64,000 nucleotides of DNA from sequence record OZ035782.1; one strand, 5' to 3'. This stretch comes from Felixounavirus LF110P2. Below are positions 23,573-28,799 of the stretch, piece by piece; position 1 is the first letter of the stretch; the number at the start of each line of letters is the position of its first letter. The position numbers and the translations under genes were made by a program. Under the pieces are notes generated by a model. It was not told the DNA's origin. It searched no databases and saw nothing but the letters and a program-made list of their open reading frames with translations.

Positions 23573-23579
23573 AATTTAA

Positions 23580-23605
23580 GGCTCCTTTTTACGGGAGCCT
23601 TTTTT
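23580..23605. terminator. Bidirectional intrinsic terminator between convergent modules
   Basis: GGCTCC ... GGAGCC hairpin followed by TTTTTT; sits between + strand structural genes and - strand thyA. Confidence 0.6.
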
Positions 23606-23608
23606 GTT

Positions 23609-24508
23609 TTACTTGCCTACTGACAAAGGTGCTTCAATCTTTCCTGCATGTTTGTAGTTGTTGATGCCACCAATAAAGTCACTTGCAGTAAGATGTTTTA
23701 AGTCACTTAAGGTGTTAAGTTGTACACCAATCTCAAAAGTAGGTGCATGGAACTCTTCATTGTTCATCAGTTCATAAACCTGCTTCATATGGTTCTGGTA
23801 AATCTGAGTATCTCCAAAGACACCTATCAAGTATCGTGGAGTGTATCCAGTCATCTTACAAAGAACTTCCAGAATAAAACCATAAGATGCAATATTAAAC
23901 GGGAGTCCTAAAAAGGTGTCTACTGAACGCTGATACCATTGCAAGTCAACTTCACCCTCATTAGTGATATAAATCTGAAACAGTACATGGCAAGGTGCTA
24001 AAGCCATCGAGTTAGCTGCAATATCTGCTGCATTCCAAGCATTAACAAGCATGTAACGGTCTGTGATATCACCTTTCATCTTCGTTACTAAGGTCTCTAA
24101 CTGGTCTACAACACAACCATTATGACCTTCAAAGTTTCTCCACTGAACCCCGTAGATTCTCCCACCTGCATCCTCTAACCAGTCTTGTTCAGAAGAATAG
24201 TTAGAGCTTAACCAGCGTTTAAAATCATCTGACCAGATAGTCCAGCGTTCCCCATCATTTTCACCCCAAGTTCGATAACGAAGTTCACCAAGTTTATTCT
24301 CACCATTCAGGAACCATAAAGCTTCCCCAATAACTTGCCTTGTAAACACCTGTTTAGATGTTAATAGTGGGAAACCAGTACGCATATCAAAACGAAACTG
24401 TGGTGGAGCAAATGCAGAGATAACATCTCCAGTTCGTGTAGTACGCAGTTCACCAACGGATAAAACATGATTCAGGATATTTTTGTAACTCAAATCAGCT
24501 TGTGACAT
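23609..24508 (-). CDS. thyA: Thymidylate synthase
   Basis: Active-site region ...LAPCHVLFQIY... and ...DTFLGLPFNIASY... are diagnostic ThyA motifs. Confidence 0.85.
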   Translation of the reverse strand: MSQADLSYKNILNHVLSVGELRTTRTGDVISAFAPPQFRFDMRTGFPLLTSKQVFTRQVIGEALWFLNGENKLGELRYRTWGENDGERWTIWSDDFKRWLSSNYSSEQDWLEDAGGRIYGVQWRNFEGHNGCVVDQLETLVTKMKGDITDRYMLVNAWNAADIAANSMALAPCHVLFQIYITNEGEVDLQWYQRSVDTFLGLPFNIASYGFILEVLCKMTGYTPRYLIGVFGDTQIYQNHMKQVYELMNNEEFHAPTFEIGVQLNTLSDLKHLTASDFIGGINNYKHAGKIEAPLSVGK

Positions 24509-24509
24509 A

Positions 24510-25055
24510 TCAAAAGTGCCCTTTTACTTGTGGAACATAAATCTCAAAGGTTGCTTTACCATCATCTGAGGGTCTTGACTGTACCTTTGCAAATACATGG
24601 CTATCATACAGTTTATCGAAGAAGTTTTCAAAAGGTAAATACACAGTGGCCTCTTCAGTAACTTTATGGAAAACTGTATGGAAAACTACACCAGCATACG
24701 GCAAAGCATTGACAAGAACACCTGCACCACCAATTACAAAGATATCTTCATCAATAGAGCTATCAAGGTACTTCAAAAATGCTCCAAAGGACTCTTTGCT
24801 GGCCTTAGCATACATTACATCTTCTTTACCAAAGTCTATACCAAAATATGGCACAGAGTTTGTTAAGATAAGGTTTTCACGTTCTGGTAAAGGCTTACTA
24901 CCCAGAGTCTTAAAAGTCTCATTACCCATCACTACTAAGTTATTTTTAGTGAGTCTCTTAAACTCTTGCATGTCCTGTTTATGTCGAGGCCACGGCATAC
25001 CAGTTGGAGTACCAAACTCACCATTTTCACCACTTGCAAAGATTAATTTAATCAT
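24510..25055 (-). CDS. Dihydrofolate reductase
   Basis: N-terminal IFASGENGEFG...MPWP... pattern and 181 aa size are typical of DHFR; adjacent to thyA. Confidence 0.7.
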   Translation of the reverse strand: MIKLIFASGENGEFGTPTGMPWPRHKQDMQEFKRLTKNNLVVMGNETFKTLGSKPLPERENLILTNSVPYFGIDFGKEDVMYAKASKESFGAFLKYLDSSIDEDIFVIGGAGVLVNALPYAGVVFHTVFHKVTEEATVYLPFENFFDKLYDSHVFAKVQSRPSDDGKATFEIYVPQVKGHF

Positions 25056-25312
25056 TTTGTAAATCCTTTCTTAATGAACCAGTTGATAACACTCTTCACA
25101 ACTTTACTACGATGGTAGATAAAATGTGGAGAGGGTTGGTATGAACCATAAGCCCAGAAAGCGATAATTTCATTACACCCTGTGCATCGGGTACTTTCTT
25201 CAGCAATATGACCGTTGACTATTTCACTTACCTCACCTTGTAAGTCTGTACACCCGCAATGTGGACAACGGATAGGTGTTCCATCAGACTCATAGCAGTG
25301 TTCAATTTTCAT
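25052..25312 (-). CDS. Small zinc-ribbon protein
   Basis: CPHCGC ... CTGC cysteine pairs; start overlaps the DHFR gene. Confidence 0.3.
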   Translation of the reverse strand: MKIEHCYESDGTPIRCPHCGCTDLQGEVSEIVNGHIAEESTRCTGCNEIIAFWAYGSYQPSPHFIYHRSKVVKSVINWFIKKGFTK

Positions 25313-25828
25313 CTATTTAACCTCAAAAACTGGCTCAAGAACCAATATAAAGTCTACACAGTCATCTTCTTCATCCAGAATACCATCAAAGTTCTTAGGA
25401 ACGAAGTCGAAGAGGCTCATAACAAAACAGTCAGAAGTGACCCTGATAGTTCCTCCCATGTTCTCTACAGTTAACACTGTACGGCTTTCTTTTACCTCCC
25501 TCAGAAGATTACCCACAAAGTCATCTAAGAAGTACTTCATCAGTGACTTAAAGCCTTTAGGATAATCTGTACCAGAGTATGTTTCAATCTGAGGAACAAG
25601 CTTAACATTTATACTAGTCTTTGTTAAGAATGCACTAGAGAACATACTATCAGGTAACTTACAAACAGTCTTTCCAGTACCTTCATGTTCAATCTCAACA
25701 AAACCAGCTTCGTCGCCACATGTAACTATTTTAAAAGATGCTTCATTCTCATACTGTGAAGCCATAAACTTTTTAAGCATCTCTTTAAGGAAATCTGCAT
25801 GAGCATCTTGTAAGTAGATATCAATCAT
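25313..25828 (-). CDS. Hypothetical protein
   Basis: Intact 171 aa ORF in operon context. Confidence 0.3.
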   Translation of the reverse strand: MIDIYLQDAHADFLKEMLKKFMASQYENEASFKIVTCGDEAGFVEIEHEGTGKTVCKLPDSMFSSAFLTKTSINVKLVPQIETYSGTDYPKGFKSLMKYFLDDFVGNLLREVKESRTVLTVENMGGTIRVTSDCFVMSLFDFVPKNFDGILDEEDDCVDFILVLEPVFEVK

Positions 25829-25841
25829 CGTTAATCACCTA

Positions 25842-26201
25842 TTATGGGAACAAGCACTTAATGTCGTCGTTTTTGAAAACAAAGCTTGTGTAGTTATGAC
25901 CGTCAACATCCAGCCAAACAGCCTGAACATCTACACCATCAAGATTCTGGTAAAGCTCTTTGATGAAGTGGTCTTTCACAATCTGACTGCTAGTTGTTTC
26001 CAGCTTAATGTTCGAGATTGCTGAACCTACAGCCATATAGCCCATGACACGTTTCTTCTCAGTATGCTTAATCTTACCATCTTTGTAAGCCATAATGAGA
26101 TTGGAAAGAATCTTCACACCATAATACTTCTCAAGGTGAGTAGGTACACCATAAAAGCCTAATGCGAAGTTTTCAGAGTGGATAATGTTTTCACGTTTCA
26201 T
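25842..26201 (-). CDS. Hypothetical protein
   Basis: Intact 119 aa ORF in operon context. Confidence 0.3.
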   Translation of the reverse strand: MKRENIIHSENFALGFYGVPTHLEKYYGVKILSNLIMAYKDGKIKHTEKKRVMGYMAVGSAISNIKLETTSSQIVKDHFIKELYQNLDGVDVQAVWLDVDGHNYTSFVFKNDDIKCLFP

Positions 26202-26202
26202 A

Positions 26203-26502
26203 TTAATCTGCCAACCTTAAATTGAAATTAACACCAAATTTTTCACATACTTCCAACATATACTCAAGGGAGACGTTACCAGTGAGATGGATTATGTTGG
26301 ATACACGAGCCTGAGAGATACCACAAATTTTAGCAACTTGCTCTTGAGAAAGACCTCTGGATTTAATCTCTCTCTTAAAACGATGTGCAACGAAGTCTCT
26401 CATTTCGTCTACATCCATTGGGCAAATATAACTTTCCATTTCAGCCTCTCTATCAGCCTCCCAATCATCTTGTGGGGCATAAGGGTCAAAAACCTCATTC
26501 AT
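26203..26502 (-). CDS. Helix-turn-helix (XRE-like) DNA-binding protein with acidic N-terminal extension
   Basis: LSQEQVAKICGISQARVSNI is a canonical HTH; N-terminal 40 aa is D/E-rich. Start set at internal ATG (MNEVF...). Confidence 0.5.
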   Translation of the reverse strand: MNEVFDPYAPQDDWEADREAEMESYICPMDVDEMRDFVAHRFKREIKSRGLSQEQVAKICGISQARVSNIIHLTGNVSLEYMLEVCEKFGVNFNLRLAD

Positions 26503-26707
26503 CTTTCTTCTTCCGTTTACGTGAAGTGTCAATCAACGAATCTATGTTTGTAGCCCTAACCTTTTCACGTCCATCGTTAAGATAATCATCAAGAGCCTTT
26601 TCAATCTGTGAATCATCTTGACAGATAACTGTAAAGACTGTAAAGCCATCTGTATCGTCAATTATCTTACCATAACCGCTTCTGGGATGTAACTTTTTAA
26701 GAGCCAT
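26495..26707 (-). CDS. Hypothetical small protein
   Basis: 70 aa ORF, basic C-terminal tail RKRKKKDE. Confidence 0.3.
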   Translation of the reverse strand: MALKKLHPRSGYGKIIDDTDGFTVFTVICQDDSQIEKALDDYLNDGREKVRATNIDSLIDTSRKRKKKDE

Positions 26708-26708
26708 A

Positions 26709-27092
26709 TCAAATACCTGTGCAGCTTCTGTTTTCTAAGAAATACTCAACACCGTACATAGCTTTTTGCATCAAATCTTCTTTAAACTGGATACGATGAT
26801 TGAGCATATCCTGTACATCAATATTATCATGGTGTTTCTCTTTAATATTTGCAGATTGCAGGAAATACTCTGCAAGAACGCGATATTGATAGTCAGTCAC
26901 CTTATCAGTCATCTCTGTCAAAGACTCTTCAGAGATTGGTTTTAGTAACTCACCATTAGCTAGAGCAACACCTTTTACAATCTGGCAAGTATCTTCTGGA
27001 ACACCTGACAAGTCCACATTTGGGAGTTCTGTTGCATTGACTGGTAAATTCATTGCCATAACCATTGCAGCAGCTAATAAAATCTTTTTCAT
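26709..27092 (-). CDS. Secreted/periplasmic protein (signal peptide)
   Basis: N-terminus MKKILLAAAMVMAMNLPVNA is a Sec-type signal peptide; first gene after the long non-coding leader. Confidence 0.4.
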   Translation of the reverse strand: MKKILLAAAMVMAMNLPVNATELPNVDLSGVPEDTCQIVKGVALANGELLKPISEESLTEMTDKVTDYQYRVLAEYFLQSANIKEKHHDNIDVQDMLNHRIQFKEDLMQKAMYGVEYFLENRSCTGI

Positions 27093-27137
27093 AATGACCT
27101 CAAAGTTATATTGAATTTTGTATTACATTGAGTATAA

Positions 27138-27184
27138 AAATAAGCTATAACACCTGACTTGTCAACAGATTTTATAGCTTATTT
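27138..27184. promoter_or_regulatory. 13-bp perfect inverted repeat (operator-like) flanking a TTGACA element
   Basis: AAATAAGCTATAA (27138-27150) and TTATAGCTTATTT (27172-27184) are exact reverse complements, separated by 21 nt containing TTGACA on the - strand. Confidence 0.45.
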
Positions 27185-27300
27185 GGCAGATTTTTTATAA
27201 GGCTACTGCCATCCTTCCATACATTACCTAACCAAGCCTAACATCACACAACCAGACCGAGCCGCACCCCGCCTTTTTAAAAGACCCTCTTAAAGACCTT

Positions 27301-27465
27301 TTAAAAAGGTAAGTCTCATTTTAATGTAGCTGAGACTAACTACCCACACCTTACCAAACCGTACCTGACCTTACCATGCCACACCTTACAACACCAAACA
27401 TTACTTAAAAACCTTCTTAGAAGACTCTTAAGTGATGCTGGTGAGTACCCGTTGGTTTATGCTGC
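27301..27465 (-). ncRNA. Candidate small non-coding RNA / structured leader (G+U-rich transcript)
   Basis: Defined only by a - strand promoter at 27468-27495 and a - strand terminator-like hairpin plus U-tract at 27301-27345; no ORF; + strand almost devoid of G. Confidence 0.15.
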
Positions 27466-27467
27466 TC

Positions 27468-27495
27468 AGTATACTCACCAAATTTTCTATGTCAA
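27468..27495 (-). promoter_or_regulatory. Sigma70-like promoter candidate on - strand (TTGACA-N16-TATACT)
   Basis: Reverse complement of 27468-27495 reads TTGACA, 16-nt spacer, TATACT. Confidence 0.35.
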
Positions 27496-27502
27496 CAACT
27501 TT

Positions 27503-28606
27503 TTATTCGTAGTCTCGAATAACTAACCCGACAGGGAACTGTAGAGACCCCTTACGAGTCATCTTCTGGAACTGAACCGTTAAAGGCTTCCCGATAAACT
27601 CTTCAGGATGCTCAGCAAGATACTGTTTCTTCTCATGAGTAGTCTTCCATGAGACATCTACAAAGACGTTAGGAAGAGTCTCTACAACGAACTTGCCATG
27701 ACCACGCTTATCAGTCTTTACACCAGTCACTTTAAACTCTTCAGTGTGCATCTTCTTGTGCTTAATCAAGAAATATGAACGGTGACCACACTCGTAGAAA
27801 GATTCTTCAGAGATTGAACGGTACATTGCACCTTCAAAATCAGCTTCAACCCATTTATCATGAGCTTCATCAAACTCTTCCCAAGAGTTAACACGACGAG
27901 ACTTGACAGGGACAACTCTACAGCCGTCTCTAAAGTCATTCAATGGTGAAGTCTCAATAATATCCCTACGCTCAGGCCACGTCTTAGTGCTGTCACAGAT
28001 ATCATACCAGTAAAACTTGAGTAAATGTCGGTCAGGATTGTCTTCATTTTTAATCATAGAGACAATATCTTCTAAGTCCAACCCATGAGCATAGATTTCA
28101 CCATCAAATTCATCAACATCTTTATGGAGCCTCAACATTGCCATAATGTCAGGTATTAGCTCAGTAGGAATTTTATAAATAGTGTTCTCACGAGAATATG
28201 CTGTAAATACGCTGCCAATACTTAAGTGTCTTGAAATTCTACAACGGACACCATCAAGTTTTGGTTGAGCATCAGCAGGGAACTTCAGATACTTTGCATG
28301 ACTAACCTTTGCAGCATCATGAGCAAGCTGCACACCTACCTTCTCAGTATTCTGTGCAGACTCTTTTGTGTAAGCATAGCCTTTGCGGTCAACCTGCTTT
28401 TTATACTTAGCAGCAACTTCAAAGAGAGCTTGCTGTTCAGCGTTACGCTCATTCTTTTTACCGATGTTTTTAGGTTCTGCTGTATACTCTTCAAACATCA
28501 TCTTGCCATTTTCTTTACCGTAGGTTGTAATAACTTTGTCACCTACAGCAACGCATGACCAGACGTTGAAAGAGCCGTCTTTATTTTGTTTGTACAGTAT
28601 TGTCAT
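27503..28606 (-). CDS. ATP-dependent DNA ligase
   Basis: Adenylation motif KLDGVRC (KxDGxR), then DGEIYAHG, EGAMYRS and FLIKHKK in the order of ligase motifs I, III, IV, V. Start set at ATG preceded by AGAGGA RBS. Confidence 0.6.
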   Translation of the reverse strand: MTILYKQNKDGSFNVWSCVAVGDKVITTYGKENGKMMFEEYTAEPKNIGKKNERNAEQQALFEVAAKYKKQVDRKGYAYTKESAQNTEKVGVQLAHDAAKVSHAKYLKFPADAQPKLDGVRCRISRHLSIGSVFTAYSRENTIYKIPTELIPDIMAMLRLHKDVDEFDGEIYAHGLDLEDIVSMIKNEDNPDRHLLKFYWYDICDSTKTWPERRDIIETSPLNDFRDGCRVVPVKSRRVNSWEEFDEAHDKWVEADFEGAMYRSISEESFYECGHRSYFLIKHKKMHTEEFKVTGVKTDKRGHGKFVVETLPNVFVDVSWKTTHEKKQYLAEHPEEFIGKPLTVQFQKMTRKGSLQFPVGLVIRDYE

Positions 28607-28607
28607 T

Positions 28608-28799
28608 TTATTCCTCTGAGTGATACCAAGTATTGCAAGCATTACATGCGTAAAGCTCTAAGTCATTTTTGTCTGGTTTATGGAAACAGTTTGCTCCGCA
28701 GTGGCAACGAAACGGCTTTCCACCAACTGTCAGAATGAAGGATTGAACCTTTCCATCAGGAGTCCGTACAGCATTTTTATGCTTGTCTTCTTTATTCAT
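28608..28799 (-). CDS. Small zinc-ribbon protein
   Basis: CHCGANC ... CNACN cysteine/histidine pairs; 63 aa. Confidence 0.3.
   Translation of the reverse strand: MNKEDKHKNAVRTPDGKVQSFILTVGGKPFRCHCGANCFHKPDKNDLELYACNACNTWYHSEE

Follow-up and report, generated by a model that had tools for sequence, protein, structure and literature searches.

Felix-O1-like phages are in wide use in Salmonella and Escherichia coli diagnostics and in biocontrol, and the genes considered here are already annotated in hundreds of genomes, two of them having appeared in recent experimental papers that link them to host immunity. They are six small genes, ORF1 to ORF6, on the minus strand between positions 25052 and 27092 of a 64,000-nucleotide stretch of DNA (the window) from Felixounavirus LF110P2 (sequence record OZ035782.1), where they lie upstream of the genes for dihydrofolate reductase (frd) and thymidylate synthase (td). 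In Felix O1, genes 96-80 have been treated as one transcription unit (Whichard et al. 2010, PMC3185647), the phage encodes no RNA polymerase of its own, and how its transcription is timed is, according to its genome paper, unknown (PMC3185647).

Among the published counterparts of the six genes is Bas63-035 (bas63_0035) of phage Bas63, whose product is 100% identical to that of ORF3. All three Bas63 mutants that escaped the reverse-transcriptase defence DRT7 had start-codon or frameshift mutations in this gene, its co-expression with DRT7 led to cell death, the protein being toxic only with DRT7, and the protein alone did not activate DRT7 in vitro (bioRxiv 10.64898/2026.04.18.719102). From the escape mutations it follows that ORF3 is made during infection, starts at its ATG, and is dispensable for plaque formation. 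A further comparison is offered by operons under Aca-type regulators, for which we looked for a regulator directly downstream of a demonstrated inhibitor, a varying cargo, and a promoter inverted repeat bound by the regulator. It was to such anti-defence loci that the original prediction, made from the sequence alone, had likened the six genes.

The explanation that we favor, and to which we give an even chance, is that the locus is a self-regulated, middle-phase operon of replication and nucleotide metabolism with a mixed cargo, and not a dedicated anti-defence island. The six ORFs would then be the promoter-proximal part of a translationally coupled eight-gene operon, within the replication and nucleotide-metabolism transcription unit, that host RNA polymerase would transcribe during the delayed-early to middle phase, starting at a sigma70-type promoter. 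The promoter lies inside a 47-bp palindrome to which ORF3 would bind, exerting negative feedback on the whole operon and so setting the dose of the cargo and of the enzymes of deoxythymidine monophosphate (dTMP) synthesis. As for the cargo, ORF1 would be exported to the periplasm and would most likely act on the envelope, in a protective or exclusion role like that of Spackle or Imm; ORF4 would be a core protein tied to replication and nucleotide genes; the acidic, quickly diverging and recombining ORF5 would most likely bind a host target; and ORF6 would be a Lar-like zinc-ribbon accessory whose value is set by the restriction background of the host. We infer the binding of ORF3 to the palindrome, the direction of the regulation, and the roles of ORF1, ORF2, ORF4 and ORF5.

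The eight-gene operon and its conservation

The genes of the operon and its terminator, with lengths in amino acids (aa), are as follows.

26709-27092, minus strand: ORF1, 127 aa, Sec-signal-peptide protein, predicted to be periplasmic, of a fast-evolving orphan family
26495-26707, minus strand: ORF2, 70 aa, orphan with the basic C-terminal tail RKRKKKDE
26203-26502, minus strand: ORF3, 99 aa from its ATG, XRE-type helix-turn-helix (HTH) protein
25842-26201, minus strand: ORF4, 119 aa, core Ounavirinae protein
25313-25828, minus strand: ORF5, 171 aa, acidic alpha/beta orphan in a mosaic slot
25052-25312, minus strand: ORF6, 86 aa, four-cysteine zinc ribbon followed by an FWAYGSYxP motif
24510-25055, minus strand: frd, dihydrofolate reductase (DHFR), seventh gene of the operon, Pfam DHFR_1 at 3e-22
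23609-24508, minus strand: td, thymidylate synthase (ThyA), final gene of the operon, Pfam Thymidylat_synt at 5e-73
23578-23601, both strands: bidirectional intrinsic terminator at the operon end, shared with a convergent holin-like gene

From ORF1 to td the intergenic gaps are, in order, +1, -8, +1, +13, 0, -4 and +1 nucleotides (nt), the negative values being overlaps of 8 nt between the ORF2 stop and the ORF3 start and of 4 nt between the ORF6 stop and the frd start. A promoter and terminator scan returned one strong promoter upstream and one terminator downstream, with none that was convincing between them, and the terminator is annotated also in wV8, Michonne and Felix O1 (t79/t80). ORF1-ORF6-frd-td is thus one eight-gene, tightly packed operon. 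All six ORFs have full-length matches to PHROG families (E 1e-26 to 1e-91) and are annotated in relatives. Codon differences from Felix O1 are dominated by synonymous changes in ORF1 to ORF5 (synonymous to non-synonymous 12:2, 4:2, 9:2, 13:2 and 13:5, in that order), and these genes are therefore real and under purifying selection. Six small minus-strand ORFs upstream of DHFR and thyA, preceded by a long leader, were what had been described originally, and that description holds for the position of every ORF, for the identity of both enzymes and for the leader of 410 nt.

Over 5.2 kb around the locus, the window and Felixounavirus LF110P2 agree at 100% identity and in their coordinates, and about 190 further Felix-O1-like phages, with E. 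coli, Salmonella and Shigella as hosts, reach 90-95%. ORF1, ORF3 and ORF5 occur in the same set of about 258 phage records, from Felixounavirus, Mooglevirus and Suspvirus, and the order ligase, variable spacer, ORF1 to ORF6, frd, td is identical in Bas63, wV8, Felix O1 and IME338 (Felixounavirus), Michonne (Mooglevirus) and SUSP1 (Suspvirus), the only variation in gene content being an exchange of the ORF5 allele and one extra gene. Since gene content is fixed across three genera, the six-gene block is, as judged from these genomes, part of the phage backbone and not a variable accessory island. Its proteins differ greatly in their rates of change: identity across genera is 88-89% for the ligase, 79-82% for ThyA and 59-67% for DHFR, and among the small proteins it is 72-77% for ORF3, 66-71% for ORF4, 56-67% for ORF2 and ORF6, 37-41% for ORF5 and 33-35% for ORF1.

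The timing of expression can be read from Felix O1, whose ORF numbers were matched to the window genes via the RefSeq annotation. By reverse-transcription PCR (RT-PCR), Felix O1 ORF87, 84, 83 and 80, equivalent to ORF1, ORF4, ORF5 and td, were maximal at 25 min and classed as "middle", a maximum shared by ligase and DNA polymerase, and ORF81 (frd) was maximal at 10 min (PMC3185647). The expression originally called "early" is thereby only loosely described, as the 10-min maximum belongs to frd and the other four genes peak later. In the cryo-electron microscopy paper on Bas63 none of the operon's proteins was placed in the virion; our literature search found no Felixounavirus RNA-seq study, and nothing on the locus in the wV8 paper.

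ORF1, ORF2, ORF4, ORF5 and ORF6 had nothing above threshold in sequence searches of Pfam, NCBIfam, PADLOC and PDB, and no match in the known defence and counter-defence sets (PADLOC-DB) or among solved structures, in keeping with the earlier remark that no catalytic motif was recognizable. Homology searches, as had been proposed for each ORF, brought out the HTH and, below threshold, the zinc ribbon, but left ORF1, ORF2, ORF4 and ORF5 as orphans, and the confident AlphaFold models of ORF4 and ORF5 matched no solved structure.

The promoter island and the helix-turn-helix protein

In the leader (27093-27502, 410 nt), two sigma70-like promoters are accompanied by three long A/T-rich hairpins or palindromes.

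27468-27495, minus strand: P1, distal sigma70-like promoter, TTGACA-16-TATACT (11/12 consensus), directly after the ligase stop
27403-27433, minus strand: H1, A/T-rich hairpin or palindrome of 14 bp, predicted RNA fold -14.6 kcal/mol (z -4.4)
27272-27309, minus strand: H2, A/T-rich hairpin or palindrome of 17 bp
27128-27222, minus strand: ultraconserved promoter island of 95 nt, holding an upstream inverted repeat TGGCAG-N19-CTGCCA, the palindrome and P2
27138-27184, minus strand: palindrome of 47 bp, candidate operator of ORF3
27137-27165, minus strand: P2, proximal sigma70-like promoter, TTGACA-17-TATTTT (10/12 match), about 45 nt upstream of the ORF1 start

The 95-nt island is present in 230 phage records, in 159 of them at an identity of at least 99%, Mooglevirus KPS64 being among these, and it is identical in SUSP1 despite diverged flanks. 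In contrast, the ORF1 protein encoded just downstream is only about one-third identical across genera and the flanking leader 75-84%, and in most genomes the locus as a whole reaches 90-95%. This difference in conservation is our strongest argument that the DNA itself is functional here. Within it, the palindrome covers the -35 hexamer of P2, the spacer and most of the -10 hexamer. Its outer arms are perfect over 13 nt (AAATAAGCTATAA / TTATAGCTTATTT) and its full arms, of 19 nt, are 89% complementary, with the -35 hexamer inside the central 9 nt. The palindrome occurs once in the 64-kb window, in which neither further copies nor half-sites were found, none of 100 shuffles yielded such a site, and the exact 47-mer recurs in Bas63, wV8, IME338, Felix O1 and SUSP1 (five genomes, a second genus included). 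Given such a site over the promoter, we would infer that the natural candidate to bind it is ORF3, the HTH protein that the operon itself encodes.

ORF3 is, on its profile matches, a genuine XRE HTH protein, as it had been called: Pfam HTH_3 (PF01381) scores 39.4 bits against a cut-off of 23 (E 6e-10), over residues 53-103 of a 109-aa form that is the mechanical ORF from a TTG (the 99-aa form being that from the ATG), and phrog_1373, "transcriptional regulator", matches at 1.4e-26. Its N-terminus and recognition helix are invariant across genera. The acidic residues 1-30 (window 26413-26502; MNEVFDPYAPQDxWEADRExEMxSYICPMD) are almost invariant in three genera, and this N-terminus is possibly the feature that DRT7 senses. 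There are weak matches to the PADLOC "Control_protein" model (E 7e-5) and to HigA, PezA, HipB and Y4mF antitoxin models (E 5e-5 to 3e-2), with PezA and HigA3 among PDB entries. A match to PDB 8vd6, "CAP REPEAT" (E 3e-12), was discarded as a designed helical-repeat artefact.

A number of points count against the explanation that we favor. Michonne encodes an ORF3 with an identical recognition helix, yet lacks the palindrome and has other inverted repeats at its promoter, which is otherwise different but keeps the P2 TTGACA and its position. A spacing of 34 bp between the centres of the 13-nt arms would be an unusual one for the binding of one XRE dimer. In ORF3 the first 30 residues are better conserved than the HTH, a hint of a protein partner and possibly of a function different from autoregulation. 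An alternative would be for the palindrome to work as an RNA hairpin (predicted at -17.8 kcal/mol, z -4.65) which, followed by a U-rich run, would attenuate transcripts from P1; the palindrome has no sequence variation, which makes a covariation test impossible. ORF3 is a candidate binder of the palindrome on sequence grounds, the roles proposed for ORF1, ORF4 and ORF5 are drawn from location, composition and evolutionary rate, and the Felix O1 RT-PCR table leaves out ORF82, 85 and 86 (PMC3185647). The proposal that the HTH protein regulates its own synthesis through an upstream palindrome finds support in so far as the palindrome overlaps the promoter, an arrangement that would suit autoregulation, but it is weakened by Michonne.

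The remainder of the leader is a place of rearrangement. P1, whose pattern has its sole exact match in the window here, precedes the cassette in relatives that have a two-gene cassette, in a leader copy of its own. Mapping onto wV8 and SUSP1 showed that the leader of LF110P2 is the empty form of an insertion site, which in those two phages holds a two-gene cassette (146 aa and 195 aa) flanked by direct leader repeats of about 215 bp; in IME338 the middle of the leader is lost. The segment with H2 is present twice in wV8 and SUSP1, once on either side of the optional cassette, and is deleted in IME338. The wV8 cassette genes, 94 and 95, belong to PHROGs of unknown function, and neither they nor the genes adjoining the locus in distant relatives have a family assignment. 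It is this leader spacer, not the six-gene block, that varies in accessory content. H1 appears in the terminator scan, yet without a T-run, and a GT-rich 10-nt periodicity in the leader is local, with no enrichment elsewhere. On the far side of the leader, the DNA ligase gene (27503-28642) is a mechanical ORF of 379 aa, as against the 366 aa annotated in Felix O1, wV8 and Michonne, its first 13 codons (MLAILGITQRNKM) being probably untranslated, and its annotation as two pieces in several relatives suggests a mobile element inserted there. Rfam returned no family at threshold anywhere in the window; the leader is thus no known RNA, and the tRNA cluster that is typical of Felix-O1-like phages must lie outside the window.

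The other small proteins and the rival explanations

ORF4 is the best conserved of the six within the genus (at least 99% identity in 137 records) and the only one with full-length homologues in Kolesnikvirus, Pectobacterium phage Wc4 and Hafnia phages, a search of a large database giving 17 clusters. In these distant phages its gene adjoins those for DNA polymerase, ligase, CCA-adding enzyme or frd/td, even where the HTH gene is absent. Its model indicates a fold of its own, in which invariant residues (F16, Y17, P20 and E24; R51, G54, G59, S60, S63, N64, K66 and L67) form a patch at a confidently modelled strand-to-helix junction; to judge by its look, the patch may bind a ligand or phosphate. 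One GenBank record labels the ORF4 orthologue a "putative nucleoside triphosphate hydrolase", the basis being unstated.

For ORF5 (isoelectric point 4.5, net charge -13), searches of the large database gave 4 and then 20 clusters, all in the same phage clade, and IME338, a Felixounavirus, carries a Moogle/Susp-type allele that is 34% identical to ORF5 between flanks that are 97-98% identical. The alignments (window 25313-25828 with L007 2987-4013 and L003 3990-5010) identify the ORF5 slot as mosaic and the change as allelic replacement. IME338 has in addition an unrelated 167-aa gene (phrog_9143) between ORF4 and ORF5. This gene, which is present also in the Moogle and Susp phages, was considered as a paralogue of ORF5 and rejected (hhalign probability 0.3%), and no internal sequence repeat was detectable in ORF5.

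In ORF6 the cysteines C16, C19, C43 and C46 are invariant in eight homologues from four phage groups and align with those of RalR, so that the zinc ribbon of the original prediction is borne out and ORF6 can be classed by its sequence as a four-cysteine zinc ribbon. Homologues are found in Ounavirinae, Nonagvirus, Krischvirus and one Klebsiella phage, with merely weak zinc-ribbon matches in Kolesnikvirus, and in the other phages they do not adjoin frd or td. ORF6 scores 18.1 bits with TIGR03655 (Lar/RalR), against a cut-off of 39.6, over model positions 3-36 of 55; three of nine ORF6 homologues match this model at E <= 0.01, all under the cut-off; and the comparison with K-12 RalR gives a BLASTP E of 0.007 over 37 residues and an hhalign probability of 63% over 32 columns. 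Full membership of the Lar/RalR family was rejected on these sub-cut-off scores and this partial coverage. The classical Lar gene itself (E. coli K-12 Rac prophage, L015 4734-4928) now carries the annotation RalR, for a DNase toxin whose antitoxin is the small RNA RalA, and "Lar-like" consequently implies less about mechanism than the name suggests. Of the E. coli hosts used with Bas63, DH10B lacks mcr/mrr/hsd. In the PhageMaP text, Bas63 gene 32 (bas63_0032), the orthologue of ORF6 at 84% identity, is called Lar-like, its knock-out has a host-dependent fitness, the gene being less essential in DH10B than in BW25113, MG1655 and S17-1, and the authors suggest that it helps to evade Type IV restriction (PMC11482910). 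ORF6 and DHFR together (24510-25312) are 84-85% identical to Felix O1 and all their neighbours 97-99%, with non-synonymous to synonymous codon changes of 14:16 in ORF6 and 27:34 in DHFR. This divergence looks like a recombination patch in the alignment, and the variability of ORF6 within the genus need not, for that reason, reflect an arms race.

ORF1 begins MKK-ILLAAAMVMAMNLPVNA|TE, an N-terminus that in the alignment has a positive charge, a hydrophobic core and a VNA cleavage site, without a lipobox. The same pattern of n, h and c regions and two cysteines (C36 and C124) are kept in homologues that are only 31-35% identical, and whose cleavage sites end in ASA, AYA or AAA. ORF1 has the features of a Sec-exported periplasmic protein, and export is predicted, in accord with the signal peptide originally noted for the first gene. 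A HMMER search with ORF1 of 1.84 billion representatives gave six proteins, of which five were short and from the same phage family (one a fragment) and the sixth was a marginal match (E 7e-4) to an unrelated 1571-aa protein. Homology to T4 Spackle was tried and rejected, as the hhalign probability was 15% and the alignment was confined to the signal peptide. ORF2 matched no toxin family or structure in Pfam, PADLOC, NCBIfam or PDB searches.

How far these properties argue for counter-defence needs to be weighed. It is in our view unlikely that the small proteins, chiefly ORF5, ORF6 and ORF1, inhibit host immunity or exclude competitors, with ORF3 as an Aca-like autorepressor, although an HTH gene and a promoter palindrome do stand in one operon, the ORF6 orthologue combines Lar-like features with a host-dependent fitness, the proteins next to ORF1 and ORF5 change two to three times more slowly than these two, ORF5 is strongly acidic and exchanged as an allele, and ORF3 is dispensable in the laboratory, as expected of an accessory module. 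The regulator has no turnover of cargo around it, for about 258 genomes from three genera share these families in one order, and on this ground a varying cargo was rejected. Upstream of it lie ORF1 and ORF2, for which no family match was found, and the indirect evidence on ORF6 concerns a gene three places downstream. The proteins have no PADLOC or family match and no structural match to solved proteins, anti-defence ones included; Bas63 remains sensitive to several restriction-modification (RM) systems; the counters validated in the main text of the PhageMaP paper (g77, 79, 80, 84, 85 and 130) all lie outside the operon (PMC11482910); ORF4 accompanies replication genes even without the HTH gene; and two housekeeping enzymes close the operon. 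The one immune role of the HTH protein that has been tested is the opposite of counter-defence, as it triggers DRT7 and is lost in escape mutants (10.64898/2026.04.18.719102). Hence, of the anti-defence interpretation first proposed, the logic of regulator and palindrome and the suggestive data on ORF6 survive, but the constant cargo, the lack of likeness to known inhibitors and the triggering of defence by the HTH protein speak against it. An elaboration of it, in which ORF3 and the palindromic promoter would form an Aca-like switch in a strictly lytic myovirus, ORF5 and ORF1 would be novel inhibitors, each with its own fold, ORF5 of an intracellular defence or host factor and ORF1 of superinfection or an envelope-level defence, and DRT7 would have evolved to sense this regulator, seems to us more doubtful still.

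Two further explanations are minor rivals. One would make ORF4, ORF5 and ORF6 auxiliary to phage DNA replication or dTMP synthesis, as accessory subunits or as regulators, for instance within a nucleotide-synthesis complex, and is likewise unlikely. It would account for the presence of ORF4 in all Ounavirinae, always beside polymerase, ligase, CCA-adding enzyme or frd/td, for its invariant R51-G54-G59-S60-S63-N64-K66 patch in a confident model, for the translational coupling of ORF6 to frd and their divergence as one patch, and for expression that coincides with that of replication genes. It meets, however, with the lack of any significant sequence or fold similarity, with an ORF5 that is too variable for a partner of a core enzyme and is without a detectable internal repeat, and with ORF6 homologues that elsewhere are not beside frd or td. 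The other, that ORF2 and ORF3 are a HigBA-like toxin-antitoxin or addiction pair, with ORF2 as toxin and ORF3 as antitoxin and autorepressor, is highly improbable. The gene order and the 8-nt overlap are like those of higBA, and ORF3 does have its weak matches to HigA, PezA, HipB and Y4mF models and to PezA and HigA3 in PDB, but the antitoxin models score 14-23 bits against curated cut-offs of 48-290, ORF2 matches no toxin, ORF3-null phages are viable and readily selected, and Bas63-035 is toxic only together with DRT7.

The locus among known systems

Nothing here overturns current ideas: the locus is typical of conserved phage blocks without assigned functions, an ordinary but well-defined unit. 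What is added to the existing annotation is a picture at the level of the operon, an ultraconserved palindromic promoter as candidate operator for the DRT7 trigger protein, the contrasts of rate and mosaicism that single out ORF1 and ORF5, and the orphan status of ORF4 and ORF5. The pair of ORF3 and palindrome is a concrete candidate for one regulatory circuit over accessory genes and dTMP synthesis and, if true, this circuit would give the DRT7 trigger Bas63-035 a function on the phage's side, a point left open by the study of DRT7. ORF4 (a core protein with, as modelled, its own fold) and ORF5 (mosaic and acidic) are reasonable targets for functional work.

Each of the systems to which the locus may be compared shares a part of it. 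The DRT7 trigger Bas63-035 is the same protein as ORF3, and its study shows sensing by a defence and dispensability, the phage-side function and the binding site being outside its scope (10.64898/2026.04.18.719102). Lar/RalR of the Rac prophage has, like ORF6, a CPxCGC...CxGC zinc ribbon, which aligns over 32-37 residues, but the C-terminal ExWNKR of Lar is absent from ORF6, which has FWAYGSYxP and a basic helical tail instead, and Lar belongs to a prophage whereas the ORF6 homologues are from lytic Ounavirinae, Nonagvirus and Krischvirus. T4 Spackle (sp), a periplasmic superinfection-exclusion protein, resembles ORF1 in its small size, its Sec signal, its two cysteines and the placement of its gene among the replication genes of a lytic myovirus; the two differ in that their sequences align at the signal peptide but show no homology outside it, ORF1 being known from its sequence only. 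The position of sp between T4 genes 61 and 41 is a precedent for a periplasmic-protein gene among replication genes, and such a gene is therefore not as unusual in its setting as was originally thought. As in Aca-controlled anti-CRISPR operons and the control of RM systems by C proteins, a small HTH protein is encoded within the operon that it would control and an inverted repeat lies over the operon's strong sigma70 promoter, to which may be added the weak "Control_protein" matches of ORF3. Unlike in Aca operons, the cargo of the LF110P2 operon is without a demonstrated inhibitor and its operator is a candidate, its neighbouring genes are constant among related phages, frd and td are part of it, and its regulator is the third gene of eight, not the last, and bears a conserved acidic N-terminal extension of 45 residues.

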